NCBI RefSeq assembly: GCF_016433145.1
Contig: NC_058130.1
Span: 378,118,292-378,182,291, forward strand
Source: Gracilinanus agilis
Taxonomy: Eukaryota
Reading direction: 5' to 3'
DNA length: 64,000 bases
Shown here: positions 41,401 through 53,290 of the stretch, one piece after another
Layout of the letters: each line of letters starts with the position of its first letter
Position numbering within the stretch: the first letter of the stretch is position 1
Notes under the pieces: model-generated
The model's input: the letters and a program-made list of their open reading frames with translations, nothing else
Databases searched by the model: none
Told to the model about the DNA's origin: nothing
Program-made: the position numbers and the translations under genes

Positions 41401-41991
41401 TTTAATCATGCCCTTTCTCCTTTCACTTTTTCAGTGTTTTGCTTTTAATCACTCCCCCCACTCTCTCTTATATTACTCCTTTCCCCAATACCCCTTTTCT
41501 TATTCCCCTTCTATAGGGTAAGATAAGATTCTATGCTACAATGAATCTGGCTGATCTTCCCTCTCTGAGCCAATTCCACTGAGAATGAGGTTTTAGTATT
41601 ACCTGTCACTACCCTCATTCTGCCTTCCAATGTAATAGTATCTCTGCCACCCACACACCTCATTAACAGCTCTTTATGTGATATAATTTACCCCATTTTA
41701 CTTCTCTCTTCCCATTTCTCTTGGTACAATCCTCTTTTTCACCCCTAGTTTTTTGTTTTTTACATATCATCCTAAAGAGTTTACTACCATATCCTCTGTC
41801 TATGTATACTTCTACTACTATGATAATTATAACAATTTTTAAGAGTTACAGATATCATCTTTCCATATAGGAATGTAAACAATTTGACCTTATTGGAGCT
41901 CTTAAATTTTTTCTCTTTCTTATTTACCTTTTTATGCTTCACTTGAATTTTGTATTTGAACATCAGATTTTCTATTTATGCCTTGATTTTT
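38420..41991 (-). mobile_element. L1, 3' portion (inter-ORF spacer, ORF2 endonuclease/RT with deletions, 3' UTR remnant); host of the ERV
   Basis: ORFs 40910-41167 (GNFIFVKGSVDNEEISVFNIYVPN), 40663-40893 (LDLIEVWR...EYTFFS...FSDHN), 39145-39372 (GDKLEAFSIRSGVKQGCPLSSLLFNIVLE). Confidence 0.92.
40353..40534 (-). mobile_element. Young SINE1_Mdo-type SINE nested in L1 ORF2
   Basis: 14-bp TSD ATACCATACATTTT at 40339-40352 and 40535-40548. Confidence 0.93.
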
Positions 41992-42481
41992 ATCAATAAT
42001 ATCATTAGCTTTAATTAGTTAAGGACTTCCTGTTCCCTTTCTCCCAACCATTATCCTGCTTCTCCTTCCCTAAGTCTATTAATAATAAATAATCTTAAAC
42101 TTACATCTGACTTGAGCTTCATCAAGAATCCTAGGGTCTCCAGTGAATCATATCCTGGGATAATTTGATGGAAGAGGAGTATTACATCTTGCAGAAACAG
42201 TGATCAATCTGCAGGCAATCTCAAGCATTATCCAAAGGCACAGGGCTTCAGTTGAGAATAAATAACTGTACAATTCTAACAACAGATTTCTTGCTTAGCT
42301 GGTAGCCCTGTGATACTGTTATCATCTAGAGTTTGGGATTAGCAGATTCAACATATTCAGACAACATCTACTGCAGTGGGTGATCCTTTTGGGTTCACTA
42401 TCATATCTTAAGTGTCTCACATAGGATTCAATACCCATAATTAACCCTGCTCCAGATTCACATTACAACCCTGTCATAACA
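41990..42481 (+). mobile_element. Truncated LTR (last ~490 bp), inverted relative to the ERV body
   Basis: Is the reverse complement of 50652-51141 (roughly 92-94% by eye); ends exactly at the LTR terminal ...ATAACA. Confidence 0.92.
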
Positions 42482-43823
42482 ACCTGAAAACATCAAGATT
42501 ATCATTTTTCTAAGTTGAACTCTACACTATGCTATACTAAGTCTCTTACCTCACTATCTACAATTCCCCCCAAAATAATAAAATTCTTAACAATGCCATT
42601 TCCTAAGCTCTCTATTCTTCCTATGCTAATGGTAAGGAGTAGGAAAGTTTTAACTGGGAAAGAATTTGGGTTTGAATACATATGGTGAACAGAATTTGAA
42701 CATGCTTATACAGTCAACAATGCAAGTTTGTAACACAAAATATAGTAACCTTTAAACTTTGTAACTTTTCCTTAACTGGCTCTATAACTATGCATAAATA
42801 CAAATAAACTATGTTAAGAAGACTACTGTCAATACATAACTGCAATTAAATATCTACATTAACACAACAGTTTTCTAACAATCTTAAATTCCTATGCTAT
42901 CTATACTATTATTAGTCCTTTTCCATACATTAGTAAATTTCTATCCTAAGTTAGAGTATTAATCCATTAGTAACATAACTACCTAAGTTCATAATATTTC
43001 TCATGACTAAACCTTATTAGCATATGTACAAGCCTATTTAATTAAACTTATAACCATAATTTTCTGTCCCTATGCTACCTTCCTATAAAAATCCCTGATT
43101 ATTCTGTCCCTAGGATTAGTAGAACTTATTATGGGTTAGTTTCAAATATAATACATATATACAAGGTTTTATGTGAAGTTTTAACAAAGAGAGTAAATCT
43201 AGCACTATTAACCAGATCAAGGAACACATTTTCTCCTTTGCCGTGGTTAAAGTACCTTTTTACTCTAACTATATATAACATATATACAAATATGTACATG
43301 TGAAGTAATTTAAGTGTTTATGTGTTGGACATATGACCTATCATGTCTTGTATTGTTTCATACTCACCTCTTAATTCTCCTGCCAATCAGCCATGGACTG
43401 TTGCATGCATTCTACAGTATGGATGCAATGACTTTATGACATGATTGTTATATGAGTATGTTAACCTTCTACAATTCAAATTTAATCTTCCACAGTTGGT
43501 CATGATATTGTTCTACTTCTGTGGTGATGTCATCCAAGTCACACAGATGTTCACAGTTCAGTTCTCTTTGTGTAGTCTGCATTGCCCTTTGCGATGTCCC
43601 ATGACATCCAGGTGTCTTCAAGCCTTCATCTGTACTGCTTTCACTATTTTGACTGGTGTCTAATTTGACTGAAGAGCTTGTCACCTTCGTTTATCTGGAA
43701 CTGTCATTTGTGTGATTGTGTTGAATTGTGTTTAAAAAAAATTGTGTGTTGCCACAAAGTTTTTTTTTTTTTGAAAAGTTGTCATAAATACGGCTTTATT
43801 ATTTCACTTGCTTCTTTAATCAT

Positions 43824-45110
43824 TTACTCATCGGTATCACTACTTTGGTCTAATGCAATTTGATCTTTTGACTGCTGTTCTTCTATGGCTGGGTCTTGTT
43901 GCTGAGGCAATTCTTTGGATGACTTGACATGAATGACATGGCACCATGGGTCTCTGTTTTTTACTTTGACTGCTGTAGGGGGTATCAAAATAATTTTGTA
44001 AGGTCCATGCCACTTGGGTTCCATGATTGATTTTCTATTAAAATTTCTGACATACACTGTGTCTCCTGATTTATAATTATGCAAGCTAAAATCAAATGGA
44101 ACTCTCTGCTGGATTAAGCCTAATCTGTGTAACTCATCTAGCCTTTCTTTCAACAGCTTGATATATTCATATGGTTTGTATTCCACTCCCAGATGTATTA
44201 AATAATCTGTCTCTTGAGGTGCCATGCCATGCCAGGGCAGTTGACCATATAGTAACTCAAAAGGTGATAAGTGAGGAATACTATTTAGTTGACTCCTGAT
44301 ATGAAACAATGCCATTAGTAAAAGATCTGGCCATTTTAGGTGTGTTTTAGCACAGAGTTTTCCAATCAGATTTTTGAGCTGTTTGTTCATTTTTTCAATC
44401 TGGCCCTATGACTGAAGATGATAGATTGCATATATATGTCTTTTTTATCCCTAAAACTGCATAAATGCTCTTTAAAATGGCATTAGCAAAGTGACTTCCC
44501 GAATCTAACAAAATAATTGCAGGGATTGAGAATCTTGGTATAATTTCTCTCAGTAGGATCTTGACTACAAAAGCTGCATTATTACATCTGGCCAGGAACA
44601 CTTCTGACCATTTGGTTAATTTGTCCACAATCACTAAGGCATATCTGTACCCTTGGCATCTTGGCATGGTGATGTAATCAATTTGCTAGTTGTTTCCCTC
44701 CAAGGCTTTTGACTTTGGTAATGCCTTAGTTGAATTGCATGCAAATCTTGCACCTCTGACACACTCTCATAGCTGTTGTAGTTATTCTTCTGGCTATCCA
44801 GTGCTTTTTAATGGAATCCACTAGGGCTAAAGTCCCATAATTACCTTTCTCATGCAAAGTATTACATAACATGTAGAACAATGATTTTGGCAAAAATGGT
44901 TTATCAAAAGCTGATATCCAAACTCAATTCACTAGATTTGTTCCAAATGTTCTTTCTAGTACTTCACTGTGGAGAATATGCATTTTGTAATTGAGTTTCA
45001 TCCACTAAAGATAAGTTCAGTACTTAAAGTGGTCCAAATCTAGCTCCAAATTTTACAGTGATGTCAGCCCTATGGTTGCCTAACTGCACTGTTCCTAACA
45101 ATCTTTGATA
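43824..45110 (-). pseudogene. pol: ERV integrase (decayed)
   Basis: HW...CQRCKIC zinc-binding remnant, YALVIVDKLTKW-EVF, IIPRF-IP-I--DSGSHF, MNKQLK, GPY/F domain (PKWHGPYKIIL-P-TAVKV...WCHVIHVK). Confidence 0.92.
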
Positions 45111-47050
45111 ACCTTTGCAATGAATTACAGAGAATTTTGCTGGTAATTGAATTCTTGCAAGAGATCACTTATTAAATGTCCATATGCAATTGCTTTTCCA
45201 TTTGACGTTATGAATCTGAGGTTTCTCCAGATTTCTCCTGAACAATGAACTACTCCAAACACATATTTTGAGTTTATGAAGATGTTAACCCATTTATTTT
45301 CTGCAATTTGAAGTGCTCTCACAAATACTAGGAGTTCTGTGCCTTGTGCACTTATTTTTTTGTGGCAGTGCAGAATACCACAAGGTGTCAGTCTGTGTAA
45401 CTACTGCAGCCCTGCTGTAGCGTCTTCCATTCACCATGTAGGATGAACCATCGGTATGAAGGTTCATATCGGCATCAACTAGGGGAACATCTGATGAATC
45501 CTTCCTAGTCTTCTGCACAACCTGCAAGGTGTCATTGCAATTATGAATATTTTCACCCTTTAATAGAAAATCTGGTAGTAGAGTAGCTGGATTGATGTTT
45601 TTGCACTAGTGGAATGACACATTCTCATTTGCTAGTAATACTGCTTGATATTGAGAATGTCTTTGTGATGTGAAAGTTTGCAGATTGGTATTCCTCAATG
45701 TTGTTTGTATTTGGTGTTGGGAATATAATCTGGGCTCTCTTTCCAATATCAGCTTTGAGGACTTTCGAAACATAATAGCTACTGTAGCCACAGTTTTTAG
45801 ACAACTGGACATTCTGCGGATCACCTGGGTCTAAGTTGTAACTATAGAAAGCAATTGGTCTTAAGTTATCCCCTAGAGTTTGCATTAGCACACCATAAGC
45901 AATCCCTTTGTCTTCATGGATGAATAGGTGGAATGGTTTTTCGTGATTTGGGATGCCTAAGGCTGGTGATGACATGATTGCAGCCTTGAGTTTCTCTATA
46001 GTGTGCTTGTGTTCTCTGTTGAGCTTCAACAGTTCTGTGACGTTCTTGGTTAACTCTGTTAGTGGTTTCACAATTAGAGAATAACCAGGTATCCACTGTC
46101 TACAGAAACTCATCATGCCTATGATTGCTCTTAGTTTTTTCTTTGTTTTAGGCAAGCTCAACTTTTAAATGTCTGCATTTCTCATTTGGGAAATTTTCCT
46201 GGTGTCCTTTTCTAGTATGAATCCTAAGTATTCTACTTTCTTTTTAATCCTCTGCAATTTTGTTTTGAACACTTTGTGACCTCTTTTGCATAGTTCTTTT
46301 AATAGATGCACACTGCCTCTCTGGCATATAGAAGCTGATGGTGACATTAGCAAGATGTCATCTGCATAATGTACCATTTTTCTCTCAGTAAAGGTAATTG
46401 ATTCTAGATCCTTTTGCAAGATTTGGCAAAATATTGAAGCGGAATTCGCGAAACCTTGGGGAATTCTTGTCCATAGGATTGATTTTCCCTCCCAGGTGAA
46501 GGTGAACAGCTTCTAGCTGTCTCTATGCATGGGTATGGAAAAGTATGTAGAGCTGAGATCAATGACAGTGAACCAGCTAGCTGTATCTGGTATCTCTGCA
46601 ACAATTCATAATGGACTGGGTACTACTGCATGTGTCTTCTTTACATAGTTGTTGACAGCCTTAAGATCTTGAACCATTCTCCACTGAGTTCTCCCTTCAG
46701 AGTACAGTTTTGCTTTTTTAATTGGCATAATGGGAGTATTGAACTCTGAGAAGCCATAGACAAGTATGCCTTGATCCAGGAGACTTTGGATGATCAGTCT
46801 TACACCCTCTACTGCTTCTTTGCTCAGTTTGAATTGAGGTGGTGTGCCTCCTTTGATTTTTATTTTTACAGGATCAGCAGACAGGATTCTTCCAACTTCT
46901 GTTGAGTTTTTAGCCCAGATTTCATTTGGGATATATCTGGAATCTCATATGTGTTGTTCTCTTGTTTGTATTCAGATTCCTCTTCTAGTTGACCTAAAAA
47001 CAATATTGGGTGATGTTTCAGAGATCTTTTTGGCAAGTGTAGATAAATCT
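45111..47050 (-). pseudogene. pol: ERV reverse transcriptase, connection and RNase H (decayed)
   Basis: SEFNTPIMPIKK...WRMVQDLKAVN, HYADDILL, VEYLGFIL, LRAIIGMMSFCRQWIPGY, LHTDGSSYMVNG, NIFINSKYVFGVVH. Confidence 0.93.
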
Positions 47051-47780
47051 TTCCACTAGGATCACATTGAATAGTGGCAGCTAATTTGCATAAAAGATCT
47101 CTCCCAGTGAGGTTGGTGTTATATTGAATCTCTGGGAGCTAGGAGTTCACTGTTGATTGACAGGTGAATCAGTTGGATGTTGAATGTTCCCAGAGATGCA
47201 TGCGGACATAGAAGAGGGCAGTTGAGAACCCTGGGAGAGGTTCTGGGGTCTTTACGTGTCCCTGAGGCTGGAGTTCAAGTGGATCCTGGTCTTTGGGGAA
47301 ATTCAGACTTGCAAACTGAACCCTGCAAGCTCCTCCTGTGTTTTCTGTATCATCATCAACCTGTATCAGACCACCATCTCTGTTTCTACTGCCCCTAGAT
47401 ATTAGGAAGTCCATCATCTTAGTCATCTAGATTTCCCAGGGCCCGGGAGGGATCTGGGAAGTGGGTAGGAGAAGAAGAAGAGGGTGGATAAAAGGGTGAA
47501 TATCTCAACCGATTAGGCTTAAGATCTACTGAAGAAGAAGCTGAAGATTTCACATTGAATGGACAGGATGGCATTAACAAAAATGAGTGATTGAGGGAAA
47601 GTGGGCCCAGCTTTATCATCTTTGCTTTAAATTTTGGAACAGACTGAGATAATCCTGAAGCACCATGGAACCTCAAATTGCCTTCATATTTGCATCGTGC
47701 TGGGATTTCCTATAAAAGATGTCCCCGTATCTAACATCACGTCATAAATATTTTCCCCAATTTTGATTGAAATTAGGGGT
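47050..47780 (-). pseudogene. pro: ERV aspartic protease (split by nested LTR)
   Basis: KPLISIKIG...VMLDTG (DTG at 47723-47731), HSFLLMPSCP-NLTGRDLLCKL. Confidence 0.9.
47117..47554. mobile_element. Nested solo LTR (438 bp) inside the ERV protease
   Basis: TG...CA termini, 4-bp TSD TTGG/TTGA; removing it plus one TSD restores in-frame CPFNLTGRDLLCKL. Confidence 0.88.
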
Positions 47781-49200
47781 TTATTTTGTTTATTGGATTT
47801 TACTGGAACAAGCAGCATCTGTGATTCCTTCAAAGACAACATGTCTTTAGGTGTAATCCAGTCCTGCATATGGTTTTCTTGCCTTAGCAGTCCATCATCC
47901 CTGTTGTCATCACTCAGTAATAATTCAGAAATCTCTTTTTGATTTTCTGAAATCATGTCTTTAGCAGCACACTGATGGAGTATTTCATACAGGGGCTGAC
48001 AGCATTCCCCTGCCCCTCTCACAGGATTCTGAGTTGTCATGGATACTCTGCCAGAGTTCACGGAGTGTTCAGAAGCTAGCACCTTTATCTTAGGGAGAAT
48101 AAGGCTTTGATTTGTGATTTCAGTTAACTTATCAGTTGTTGTCTCAAAGTCTGTAGAAGTAGAAATTTTTCCTTTGGCAGCTTCTGGATTTGGTATATGG
48201 TTAGAGTTTTCGCCATCCACTGCCTCGGGTTTAAGTTTTCTTGTCTCTAAGACTTGATGAATCATACTCTCCAGTTTACGCTTCTGTGGAGTTCCAGGCA
48301 ACTCACTGGAAACCTCTTTGTGTGAGTTAACCTTGTTAACTCTGCTGATTAACTCACTAGATTTTTGTTTGATCATGTCTATGTCCTTCATCCCACAACC
48401 CTTAGGTGTATATTCCTTTGCTTGTGGATTTAAACTTGAAACTAGATATCTTTCTGGTCTATATTTGTTCTTATATAACCCTGCTTCAAGATGAAGGAAT
48501 ACAGAGTTCCCATTAAATCCTGGAGGCTTTCCTCTTCTGCACTTTGAATACTATTTTCATTTACTGCATCTGAATGGGGTACTCTATTTTTTATGGGACA
48601 CAGCTTCATCTCTTGGGTTATATGTGTTGCTAGTGTGTTAACACAATGTAAATCCCTTTCACATTCTTTATCCAAGACTTCTTTTTGATCACAGCTTGGA
48701 ATAAAGTTATGAAGCTGTGGTTTCTGACCCATCAAACTGGATTGTAATGCTTCATCCTTTTGCAAACAATTACTAATCCTTCCTATGAAGTCCATTTGTT
48801 GCATATCCAAACCACCTTGTTAGGAATATGCTAACTAACTTTCTTCAAGCTCATTGCTTGATATCCCAGATACAACTTTCCTCATTTGTAAGATGTCTTG
48901 CCACTCCTCATTTTTTGCAGCAGTCTGATCACTACCCCTTGTAAATTCATTTATATTGTTGCCCAGCCTATTCAGTGTGCTGTCTTTGCCCTCTGCCTTA
49001 TTGCAGTCACCCTCTTTGTCTCAAATAAACTTCCATCGAATCCAATGTAGGAGACTGGCTAGATTTCCTCCATTTATGATCACAACATCTATCATGAGAC
49101 TTATCATCCTCATGATGCCCTGACATGATTGACCACTTGGAATTGTAATATGTCTTCTTGTTGTTATCACATTGCTCATTGCTATAAGACTTATTAAAAT
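47781..49200 (-). pseudogene. Uncharacterised Gag-Pro extension (~470-495 codons, hydrophilic, contains PAM2-like motif)
   Basis: ORFs 48442-48810 and 47684-48391 plus largely open frame 48841-49020; the last segment is in frame with protease. Confidence 0.65.
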
Positions 49201-50596
49201 TAATCTGCTTTTTATATTTATGAAATTTAACTATGTGGCCTCAAAGTCCACACAGATAGCATGTCTTTCCAACAATATCATTGCCTTTGTTATTATAGCC
49301 TCCTGATTGCTAGACTGACTTTGTCCCCTACTGGCTTGTAGTGCCAAGTTCTTAATCTCTTCATGCTCTTTCTCCTTTTTTGCATCCTTAAGCTATCTCT
49401 TTAAATCTGCAGTCAATGTAGCTTTCTCAGACTCAGATTCTCTAGCTGCTCTTTGTTCTTTCACCCAAAAGTCATGAATGTAACTAGCATGTTGTCTAAT
49501 ATCCTCAATGGAGAGAGTTTCCCATTGAGGGCAGTTCTGGCGAAAGTAATGTTGGATTTGCACTGCAGCCCCTTTGACAAATTGCCTACGTATGTGCTCT
49601 AAAGCTTCTGGTGACTGGTTATCCCTGTATCCAAGCAAATTCTCTACCAATTCTACTAGTCTGTCCAAGTATATATTCGGATGTTTGTCTTCTACCTGCC
49701 TCAATTTCTCAAATTTTATCCATGAGTTAAGCCTCTTAGCATATAATTTCATTGCTTCCAACAAATTGGTTTGACACCTCTGTAAATATCTCATATTGGC
49801 ATAAGACGATATCTCCAAGTCTTCATGAACAGTAGGCCAGGATGTCAGGTTTTCATTTGACCTAGTCTCTTCCATGAATTTATTTTTTCAGATGGTGTGT
49901 AAAATTCCCCCAAAAGAAATTCCACATCCTGGAAAGATGGATTGAACAGTTCAAAAGCCCTTTCCAGCTCTTTTATGGACTTATGTGGTGATAGGTAAAA
50001 TTTGGGGAATCTTCTCCTTAAAACTTCTAGGTCATTGACTGTAAATGCTTTATATGACTTCAAATGAACTATCCCTCCTTCCAGTTGAAGGATAGTTCTA
50101 TCCACAATGGGGTACAGAGATACGGTATTTGATTTGTCATCCTTTGCCTCAGTCTTAGTATCTGTAGAATTTGTAGCATCAGTGGCTGTCCCTATTTGGT
50201 TTTTTCTATTACCTCCAATTGCATTATTGTGTGGTTATCAAGTTGTTGACCCTCTCTTATCTTTTTGTTAATTTCTATGAGTTGTTTTATTTGGTCTTTC
50301 AGTGTTTGTATCAGGTCACTATTCTCTTGCTTTGGATGTCCCCACAAATGCTCAACTACTTTCTTCAATGCTCATAGTCCTTAAAAAATCAATATAATAA
50401 TAATTCCCAGAGTAGGCAGGAATGCTAACAATTCTGCCAGGCTAACTGCTAGCCATTTGTAAGAATCACATATCAGTAAGATTTTTAGCAGATAACCTGG
50501 AATAGTTTCGAACCATAATGTGTAAGCACCTTGGGAAATAGTGTATATCATTAGGCAGAGGCTTAATACTATAAAAGTCATTCTTCCCACAGCCAT
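49200..50596 (-). pseudogene. gag: ERV gag (hydrophobic leader, coiled coil, capsid with MHR, NC zinc knuckle)
   Basis: YKAFTVNDL...FNPSFQDVEFLLGEFYTPSEK (class I CA), HPNIYLDRL (MHR-like), CYLCGL*GHIVKFH knuckle at 49220-49261. Confidence 0.88.
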
Positions 50597-50629
50597 TTTT
50601 ATTTTTCTGCTTTGTCATTACTAAGTTCA

Positions 50630-50651
50630 ATTCCTTTTGCCTCGCAAAAAC
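50630..50651 (-). promoter_or_regulatory. Degenerate primer-binding-site-like sequence
   Basis: Directly after the LTR end: GTTTTTGCGAGGCAAAAGGAATTGAAC, with a TTGAAC TpsiC-loop complement; tRNA species not assignable. Confidence 0.4.
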
Positions 50652-51526
50652 TGTTATTACAAGGTTGTAATGTGGTTCTGGAGCAAGGTTAATTATGGGT
50701 ATTGAATCCTATGTGAGGCACTTAAGATATGATAGTGAACCCAAAAGGATCACCCACTGCAGTAGATATTGTCTGAATATGTTGAATCTGCTAATCCCAA
50801 ACACCAGATGGTAACAGTATCATGGGGCTACCAGCTAAGGAAGAAATCTGCTGTTATAATTGTACAGTTATTTATTCTCAACTGAAGCCCTGTGCCTTTG
50901 GATAACACTTGAGATTGATTGCAGATTGATCACTGTTTCTGCAAGATGTAATATTCCTCTTCCCTTAAATTATCCCAGGATATGTTCTACTAGAGCCCTA
51001 GGACTCTTGATGAAGCTAAAGTCAGATGTAAGTTTAAGATTATTTATTACTAATAGACTTAGGGAAGGAGGAGCAGGATAATGGTTGGGAGAAAGGGAAC
51101 AGGAAGTCCTTAACTAATTAAAGCTAATTATATTATTGATAATCTTTGAAAATACTGTTGATCAGGTTTGATAGATAATAGCCTGATTGTGCCAGACAGA
51201 CCCAAACTAAATCAAGGTTACTCTGCTGAATGAGATGTTGTTCTTCTTCTTGGTAGTGAAATTCAGGAATAGAGATTGATGAAGTAGATTTGTAGTTGGT
51301 TGTTGGTTCATGGTTGAATAAAGCTCACCTGAGGCCTACCCAAACCACCCTTCAACCCACTATCTCATTTCTGAGATCAAGTGGCTTCAAATTCCTGGCT
51401 TTTATACCTGAACCTAACTGCCCTTGGCTTCTGCCAAGCTCCTTCCAGGTTTGGTTCTTTCCGCATTCTAAGCAGGTAATTGTCCATCATCCTGACTTCA
51501 ACATGGCTGTCAAATATATTATTACA
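50652..51526 (-). mobile_element. ERV 5' LTR (875 bp)
   Basis: TGTAATAA...TAATAACA; TATAAAA at 51400-51406; AATAAA at ~51045 and ~50873; adjacent to PBS-like site and gag. Confidence 0.9.
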
Positions 51527-53290
51527 CTATGTATACTTCTGCTACTATGATAATTGTATGAATTTTTAAGAGTTACAGATATCATCTTTACATATAGGAA
51601 TATAAACAATTTGATCTTATTGGAGCTTTTAAATTTTTTCTCTTTCTTATTTACCTTTTTATGCTTCTCTTGAATTTTGTATTTGAACATCAGATTTTCT
51701 CCTTATGCCTAATTTTTTTTTCTTCAGGAACAGTTGAAAATCTTCTATTTTATTAAATGACCATACTCTCCCCTGAAAGAATATAGTCAGTTTTGACAGG
51801 GAGGTGATTCTTGGTTGTTAACCCAGTTCCCTTGCCTTCCAACATATCATATGCTAAGCCTTCCAGTCCTTCAGTGTGGTAGCTGCCAAATCCTATGTAA
51901 TCCAGACTGAGGCTTCATGATATATGAACTGTTTCTTTCTGGCTGTCTGTAATATTTTCTCCTTGGCCTGGGAACTCTTGTACTTGGCTATAACATTCCT
52001 GGGATTTCTCATTTTGGGATTTGTTGTAGGAGGGGATTTGTGGATTCTTTCAATTTCTATTTTACCCTCTTGTTCAAGAATATTAATGAAGTTTTCTTAG
52101 ATAATTTCTTGTAATATGACAGATAGTCTTTTTTTTTTTTGGTCCTGACTTTCAGATAGTCCAATAATACCTAAAATGTCTCTTCTGGATCTATTTTCTA
52201 GGTCACTTTTTTTCAATTAAATATTTCATATTTTCTTATATTTTTTATTCTTTTGTTTTTTCTTATTGTTTATTGATGTCTCATGAAGACACCAGATTCT
52301 GTTTGCTCATTTGTAGTATTTAAAGACTGAATTTCTTCCTTGACCTTTTGATCCTCCTTTTTCATTTGGTCCATTCTACTTTTCATGACACTTTTTTTTT
52401 GCCTCTTTTTCTAGTAGGTTAATTCTGTTTTACAAAAACTTTTTTTCCATTGGATTTTTGTGCCTCTTCTTTCCAGTTCACTAATTATGCCTTTTAAGCC
52501 ATTATTTTCTTTTTTGCATTACTTTCATTTTTTTCCATTTTTCTTCCCATTTTCTTCAACCTGTCTTATTTGATTTTTGAATGCCTTTTCGAATTCTTCT
52601 AGTGCTTGAGACCATTTTCCATTTTTCTTTGAAGTTTTGCATGCAGTTACTTAGATCTCACCGTCCCCTGTTGGTTCTGTGCTTTGCTTTTTGCCCTAAA
52701 GATTTTAGAAATCTTTAAGGGTTAAATGTTTCTTTTTGCTATTTGCTCATTTTCCCAATCTTTTTTTTCTGCCTGTGAACTGGAAATTCTGAAAGCTGCT
52801 TGCTGATTGTGTTTCCTTTGCAGCTGGCTTATAGGGATTGCTACTGTGAGCTATTTTACCCTGAGGGTAGGTCTTCAGCACAGCAAAGCAAGTTTGAAAG
52901 GGGCCACCGCTATGGACTTCTGGGCTTCATAGTGGGCTAGTATCAGAGTCTGGGACTTCAAGGGGTGGGTCTGAGGTGCTCTTTTGTTGGGGTAGCCACA
53001 TCCAGGATCTCAAAGTTAGCCTATGGCCATCATAGAACCTGATGCAGTAGGTGGAAGGTGGTCAGCCAGCACTACTCTGTGTGCAGTTTTGCTTCTGATT
53101 CCCCCTTATCCCATAAAAATCAACTGCCTTGGCCTATATTTCAAGTTGTATTCTGAGGGAGACCTCTCTCAATCTGTCTTGTTGTTGGTTTTTGACTCCT
53201 ATAATTTTGAGGTGCTTTTTAAAGATTGGTTAGGAAGGATTTTCAGAGCAGTTTCAGCCTTTGCTGCTACTAAGCCATCATTTTGGCTCC
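51527..53290 (-). mobile_element. L1 5' portion (5' UTR, ORF1, start of spacer), continuation of 38420-41991
   Basis: ORF1 complement (same family as 415-699); 5' end GGAGCCAAAATGATGGC at ~53290. Confidence 0.88.

Follow-up and report, generated by a model that had tools for sequence, protein, structure and literature searches.

A hydrophobic two-helix start of Gag in env-less class I endogenous retroviruses of opossum-like marsupials

Most of what is known about how a retrovirus becomes an intracellular retrotransposon comes from mouse IAP and MusD. IAP Gag carries a changed N terminus on a matrix, and MLV glyco-Gag retains its matrix and places the capsid outside the cell. IAP lost env and gained an ER-targeting signal (Ribet 2008, as cited in the available part of PMC4643047). 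According to the accessible portions of the respective texts, env-less elements have formed megafamilies (PMC4102558), particles of MuERV-L gather in the ER (PMC5930517), and the matrix has its standard role (PMC13709493). Bik-1 and ERNI are described in the available text of PMC12067270 as bearing N-terminal coiled coils; that of Bik-1 is required for binding to membrane, and Bik-1 Gag localizes to the plasma membrane. OVEX1 Gag is reported, in the accessible part of PMC2717909, to be non-myristoylated and to contain a coiled coil. MEBrv 3 of dasyurid marsupials is introduced in the available text of PMC11334065 as an env-less, amplified class II ERV that keeps an env remnant; the words "matrix" and "hydrophobic" do not occur in that paper. 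The literature searched, mainly open main texts, yielded no account of marsupial ERVs with a hydrophobic or transmembrane Gag start. Helical N-terminal Gag domains have precedents, and the hydrophobic two-helix start of a marsupial class I clade may be new, the repeats themselves probably being catalogued already as repeats.

The window analyzed here is a 64,000-nucleotide stretch of Gracilinanus agilis DNA. It contains a dead endogenous retrovirus, one copy from a class I clade of opossum-like marsupials that lacks env. The copy runs from 51526 to 41990 on the minus strand, the strand of all element parts below unless stated. The 875-bp 5′ LTR (50652–51526) has TG...CA ends; its edge is marked by a start point shared by many copies, and its sequence matches the direct 3′ LTR of other copies. 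A decayed stretch resembling a primer-binding site follows (50634–50651), which is TGG-type in other copies, and no tRNA gene lies within the 64-kb window. Gag is sequentially composed of an N-terminal hydrophobic domain predicted to form two long helices (codons 1–88, 50333–50596), a charged helical, coiled-coil-like segment (50200–50332), a variable linker (50112–50199), a broken MLV p30-like capsid that starts from the Pro of a Tyr-Pro site (49457–50111, end approximate), and a decayed zinc knuckle of the nucleocapsid (49215–49261). The zinc knuckle was read from the sequence and is found as zf-CCHC in open relatives. A low-complexity spacer of ~400 codons (47760–48990, limits approximate) leads from the end of gag to a broken pro-pol region (43824–47759), which encodes protease, RT, RNase H, and integrase with an MLV-type C-terminal domain; Pfam recognizes RVT_1, RT_RNaseH_2, RNase_H, rve, and MLVIN_C. 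The subsequent AT-rich non-coding region (42482–43823) has a GC content of 0.32, a longest open sense stretch of 73 amino acids, and no match to an env remnant.

Three further features of the internal region were observed. About 440 bp at 47117–47554 are missing from other copies; alike DNA occurs in L039, where it precedes the 3′ part of another element's gag, and reversed in L047, so this piece is taken as a secondary insertion. In the subfamilies of the window and L116, an acidic low-complexity spacer of 400–500 codons separates the gag stop, in frame, from the protease; it contains 19% D+E in L116 (3167–4440), is shorter in L106–L110, and gives nothing above cut-off in Pfam. The window subfamily (42480–42510 in the window; L082–L099) has no clear purine tract ahead of the 3′ LTR and a degenerate primer site, the tract being present in sister subfamilies (L107–L110, L113, and L114).

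The initial annotation of this DNA, made from the sequence alone, read the start of Gag as a membrane-targeting leader. The ATG at 50596 indeed lies in a strong Kozak context, with A at −3 and G at +4, and the translation is as quoted there. The annotation took it for the first ATG downstream of the LTR, wrongly for this copy, where an out-of-frame ATG at 50618 comes earlier and opens a 50-codon frame (50466–50618) that is absent from most copies, an upstream out-of-frame ATG being present in 5 of 21 copies with an aligned ATG. The two hydrophobic stretches noted are real, with Kyte-Doolittle 19-mer peaks of 1.88 (residues 2–20) and 2.61 (residues 56–74). Segment 1 covers residues 2–20 (50537–50593), and segment 2 covers approximately residues 53–74 (50375–50440), with a largely conserved proline, and has basic residues downstream of it; the second helix looks more hydrophobic in the window than in other copies. 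The leader frame is interrupted by a TAA at codon 72 (50383–50381) and a TGA at codon 75 (50374–50372) before it enters the charged segment, and a one-base loss in an A6 run (50205–50200) parts it from the capsid frame, all as first described. The window leader has no Met-Gly start, again as annotated.

A DNA search of the G. agilis genome returned 43 matches of 58–82% identity, including the window. The copy set comprised 30 loci minus three duplicates (L010, L014, and L024), with L005 as the reference. Of the 26 other copies, 19 align at the start codon, and 18 of these have ATG. The stops and the frameshift are particular to the window copy: the two stop positions hold a stop in 1/25 and 3/25 other copies, the frame offset from start to capsid is kept in 11 of 19 other spanning copies, and L005 and L028 are open from ATG to capsid with neither stop nor shift. 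The family copies do not support the proposed origin of the TGA by CpG decay. Of the observations that the initial annotation named as refuting its reading, a stop kept in the family, a downstream Met-Gly start, or relatives with env and matrix, none was encountered.

Across 27 copies, pN/pS is 0.24 for codons 1–88 (0.20–0.29), 0.23 for the capsid, 0.17 for the charged helix, and 0.54 for the linker, which has many in-frame indels; these are pairwise values from pairs that are not independent, and the interval is a codon bootstrap. After correction, the Gag frame has a ratio of 0.11 and the remaining two frames have 0.85 and 2.28. The open copies and the frame-specific selection together show that the leader is coding, in the Gag frame, and constrained as the capsid is. 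The chance that it is a fortuitous hydrophobic frame or a separate uORF in AT-rich leader DNA is negligible: the window frame does stop after 71 codons, as such a uORF would, but most copies lack the stops, their frames run open into the capsid under frame-specific selection, and the open natural copies refute the idea. The hydrophobic leader is a true, selected Gag N terminus across the clade and no separate uORF.

The same layout of two hydrophobic helices, charged helix, linker, MLV-like capsid, and zinc knuckle is shared by related subfamilies at 25–50% identity, including young ones with open gag. An unfiltered HMMER search found nine relatives, among them the predicted Monodelphis domestica proteins XP_007499152 and XP_056674145; the former has 520 residues, a hydrophobic start, p30, and a zinc knuckle. 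It matched the genome 85 times at 40–69% identity, often without stops, and the N termini of these matches again contain two hydrophobic segments, a charged helix, and a linker. A sister subfamily gave at least 150 matches of 81–100% identity, and ~100 of the 150 listed have no stop in the first 252 codons, a count made by hand that includes duplicated contigs. In 21 young copies from 30 of its loci, pN/pS is 0.19 for the leader and 0.18 for the capsid. Another subfamily has LTR pairs up to 99% identical. For the gag of one young subfamily no RNA record was listed, which speaks neither way. A leader profile made from these rows matched 28/29, 23/30, 20/20, and 30/30 loci in four overlapping sets, a partly circular comparison; the seven unmatched loci, from the XP_007499152-like set, are mostly matches beginning inside the capsid or linker. 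A word-based protein search of the L005 frame against longer proteins found nothing, and the ESM Atlas gave weak Gag-like leads only, under 0.9, with no usable feature match for residues 1–135. The feature is real and wider than could be seen from the window sequence alone.

Capture of the leader from env was considered and rejected, as its profile matched 0/30 env loci and no protein outside the clade. Two side observations concern Gag-related frames elsewhere. The open gag frames L051–L055, 65–67% identical to XP_007499152, have Val at its first-Met position, and several frames of this type lie inside otherwise decayed elements (L106 and L107 among zinc-finger-like repeats); co-option or a non-AUG start is possible. 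In P0011, a predicted N-myc-interactor of a didelphid, the first ~85 residues are 81% identical to clade Gag, which may reflect an exonized ERV piece or a prediction error.

In hydropathy the leader stands apart from the other N termini compared. The best 19-mer before the capsid scores 1.87–2.55 in four clade proteins, compared with at most 0.73 in ten other proteins in which at least 100 residues precede the match to the capsid profile; a chaperone chimera and an off-target match were set aside. The first 80 residues hold 6–13 charged residues in the clade versus 17–20 in three gamma-type Gags, and the net charge after helix 2 is 0 to +5. In some subfamilies the leader helices are only marginally hydrophobic.

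The assignment of the element to class I in the initial annotation is borne out. Its best solved RT match is MLV/XMRV RT (E 4e-42, versus 2e-23 for foamy virus), the RT tree agrees, and the p30-type capsid, the MLV-type integrase C-terminal domain, and the LTR-gag-pro-pol-LTR order are class I features. The best profile match of the capsid is MLV CA (E 3.9e-13), and its C-terminal domain fold matches MLV CA with a Z score of 13.3 and an rmsd of 2.0 over 87 residues. Gag and pol are joined by an in-frame stop, after which L113, L116, and L118 remain open for 508, 430, and 313 codons and five other copies for 30–194 codons. The RT tree was built with FastTree from 86 RT sequences in single natural frames, which L047, L048, and L108 lack; the window contributed a 115-residue piece, and no named epsilonretrovirus was included. 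In this tree the marsupial elements group as a single clade (support 0.999). Its neighbors are Pol records and one record from pigeon in which an env fragment is present (0.978), and it falls with the fish and amphibian sequences of class I (0.80), apart from the matrix-bearing gamma types. The earliest branch of the clade is a second element in L039, seen without a gag start. Membership of the class II IAP group was rejected, the RT not being of class II.

No recognizable matrix was found in sequence searches against Pfam Gag_MA and solved MA chains. Pfam found nothing in the window leader; Gag_MA was missing from single-protein scans and from the best 25 of 54 families for the alignment, and no MA chain was among 24 PDB matches at E ≤ 10. 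Fold searches listed no matrix domain, and since the capsid fills these lists, the absence there is no exclusion. A Met-Gly start occurs in 2 of 19 Met-starting rows, the homologs P0003 and P0004, and in none of the genome's own rows. Judged from these alignments, the clade has no conserved myristoylation start.

The env gene is missing across the clade, consistent with the lack of a recognizable env first noted in the window. In 10/10 elements from at least five subfamilies, the region from integrase to the 3′ LTR is non-coding, 0.9–1.8 kb long, and 30–34% GC. None of these regions gave an env match better than E 0.75 or an open sense stretch longer than 97 codons, and in positive controls the probe matched real env at E 2e-25 and 1e-11. 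Two open frames of other kinds were seen. L126–L155 represent a separate young family with an open gamma-type env of ~660–675 codons and an integrase that is not of this clade; the family includes a tandem run on C1 with a spacing of ~5.8 kb. A 362-codon Ser/Thr-rich, mucin-like frame (L112, 5649–6734) follows a truncated element, is unlike the 3′ region of the family, and is probably host DNA.

The window element ends in an inverted 3′ LTR on the plus strand (41990–42481), 460/491 identical to the 5′ LTR. The 5′ 384 bases of this LTR are missing, and its exact U5 end is joined inward, ~30 bases before the usual LTR start. The element is flanked by a 192-bp duplication of host sequence (41800–41991 and 51527–51718, 178/192 identical), which we take to be L1-like. 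Both the duplication and the LTR pair are ~93% identical. Such a structure is compatible with a U5 end that integrated into its own element, with later repair at one end.

Several defective copies likewise end in an inverted LTR: in addition to the window (41990–42481), L012 (oriented 587–1461/2473–3370), L006, L017, and L039. The two outer ends of L012, and likewise those of L006, are U3 ends whose flanks match over 4 bp with one mismatch; the inner junction of L012 and of the window element is the exact U5 end. These copies look like self-integration inversions that were later inserted. Inverted terminal repeats were rejected as a family-wide trait: a direct LTR lies right after the internal end in 18 of 24 other 3′-end loci, the remainder being truncated or unmatched, and L113 has a 4-bp target duplication. 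A DIRS-type identity, with inverted repeats and a tyrosine recombinase, was also rejected, as the integrase is of DDE type and the LTRs are mostly direct.

The leader is likely to anchor Gag to a membrane in some form. The more specific proposal, that a two-helix hairpin anchor replaces the function of matrix in this env-less clade, keeps the capsid cytosolic, and lets the element copy itself within the cell, is probably correct. Helices 1 and 2 would insert as a hairpin whose two ends both lie in the cytosol, with basic residues trailing helix 2, and would take over the role of matrix with no need for myristate. A monotopic arrangement, inserted around the conserved proline, would also keep the capsid cytosolic. 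Capsid and nucleocapsid must face the cytosol for RNA packing, so either arrangement suits and a lone signal peptide does not. The membrane would most likely be the ER or another internal one, since a first hydrophobic helix at residues 2–20 should engage SRP. The cytosolic capsid and nucleocapsid would pack RNA and Gag-Pol, the latter made by readthrough of the in-frame stop, and protease would free the capsid at the Tyr/Phe/Leu-Pro site. Replacement of matrix at the time of env loss is plausible; the nearest outside relatives of the clade are known from Pol only. The broader statement that a long-lived, recently active American marsupial clade uses a two-pass, ER-inserted Gag instead of matrix, by a route independent of and more radical than that of IAP, is put forward tentatively, as somewhat short of probable.

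Instead of crossing the membrane, the leader could form a bundle of helices that is soluble or only peripheral to it. Such a bundle would be an amphipathic or oligomerizing stalk whose hydrophobic faces pack together or lie in one leaflet, like the coiled-coil N termini of Bik-1, ERNI, OVEX1, and foamy virus Gag. Several observations lend this reading weight. On a rough biological insertion scale with weights of our own, scores lie between 0 and +4 kcal/mol for most segments, many of them at +2 to +4, reach +5 to +6.5 for some, and fall below zero for few, so that insertion is marginal in several subfamilies; a real env anchor scores +0.4 and gamma Gags +9 to +13 on the same scale. Residues 24–41 display a clear amphipathic moment of 0.2–0.5. 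An alignment-based model of the first 376 residues of the sister subfamily, of moderate confidence (mean pLDDT 62, pTM 0.29), contains helices at 2–45 and 52–93, shorter helices to 137, a loose linker, and an MLV-like capsid from Pro158. Its leader helices of ~40 residues are far longer than a bilayer span, and the N-terminal part matches only generic hairpins or coiled coils in fold searches; a single-sequence fold of P0005 (pLDDT 40) was set aside. In addition, other env-less elements have N-terminal domains that are helical and lack transmembrane character, as described in the accessible parts of PMC12067270 and PMC2717909, which counts against an anchor. We nevertheless regard the bundle as unlikely, as two 19-residue, nearly uncharged cores of low moment are kept at 25% identity, and a separate charged coiled-coil-like helix is already present after them.

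Two other readings accept the membrane and differ in topology or destination. Helix 1 might serve as an ER signal peptide that is removed by cleavage, with helix 2 as the stop-transfer anchor, giving a type I Gag with a short luminal piece and IAP-like budding into the ER. The window subfamily and its sisters do have a basic residue, a hydrophobic core, and small residues near position 23, but position −3 is Trp or another large residue in several open copies and the −3/−1 pattern is missing in distant subfamilies (both judged by eye). Residues 1–25 are moreover conserved as the capsid is (dN/dS 0.10), which would be unusual in a peptide that is cut off and lost. Cleavage of a simple signal peptide is unlikely because the capsid would become luminal unless helix 2 stops transfer, and because the −3/−1 pattern is not kept; the two-part arrangement as a whole is improbable. 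The anchor could also send Gag to the plasma membrane for cell-to-cell spread with an envelope borrowed from another family, and the genome does contain many open gamma-type env genes (at least 78 matches listed). The integrase visible beside env at 13 of 30 loci, however, is only 22% identical to that of the clade or unmatched, and env loss is usually tied to intracellular spread according to the available parts of PMC4643047 and PMC4102558. This borrowing has a very slight probability. The hairpin anchor is retained as the preferred reading.

The clade points to a so far undescribed mode of particle assembly on internal membranes. It offers an independent class I case, in which all subfamilies examined lack env and share a hydrophobic domain selected as strongly as the capsid, and young open copies are numerous. 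Whether Gag must be retargeted after env loss, and whether Gag can work as a true membrane protein, thereby become testable questions. Open frames encoding a putatively membrane-anchored Gag would also be raw material for host co-option, as in Bik-1 and ERNI.

Among known systems, MEBrv 3 resembles the clade in being an env-less, amplified marsupial ERV, and differs as a class II element with an env remnant, by the available description. The epsilon-like class I ERVs of fish, amphibians, and birds were compared by RT only, and the clade RT groups among fish and amphibian sequences (0.80). Zebrafish Bik-1 and Bik-2, chicken ERNI (ENS-1), OVEX1, and foamy virus Gag share a helical, non-myristoylated domain before the capsid, as far as the accessible texts describe them. 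Their RT lineages, unlike that of the clade, are loki, ERV-L sister, or class III-like. Bik-1, ERNI, and OVEX1, compared by description only, are presented as coiled coils, and the word "transmembrane" is absent from the available text of PMC12067270.

The clade resembles MLV and other gammaretroviruses in the fold and sequence of the capsid, the MLVIN_C tail, the single zinc knuckle, the in-frame gag-pol stop, and the 4-bp target duplication. Unlike MLV, it has no Gag_MA match, conserved Met-Gly, or env, and a spacer of 400–500 residues precedes its protease. With mouse IAP, a class II, betaretrovirus-like element, it shares the lack of env, a Gag N terminus suited to membranes without myristate, and a high copy number. 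In contrast to IAP, the clade has a class I RT, an MLV-like capsid, and, in place of any matrix match, a whole double-helix domain of ~90 residues. The likeness to IAP is best understood as a functional analogy, not kinship.
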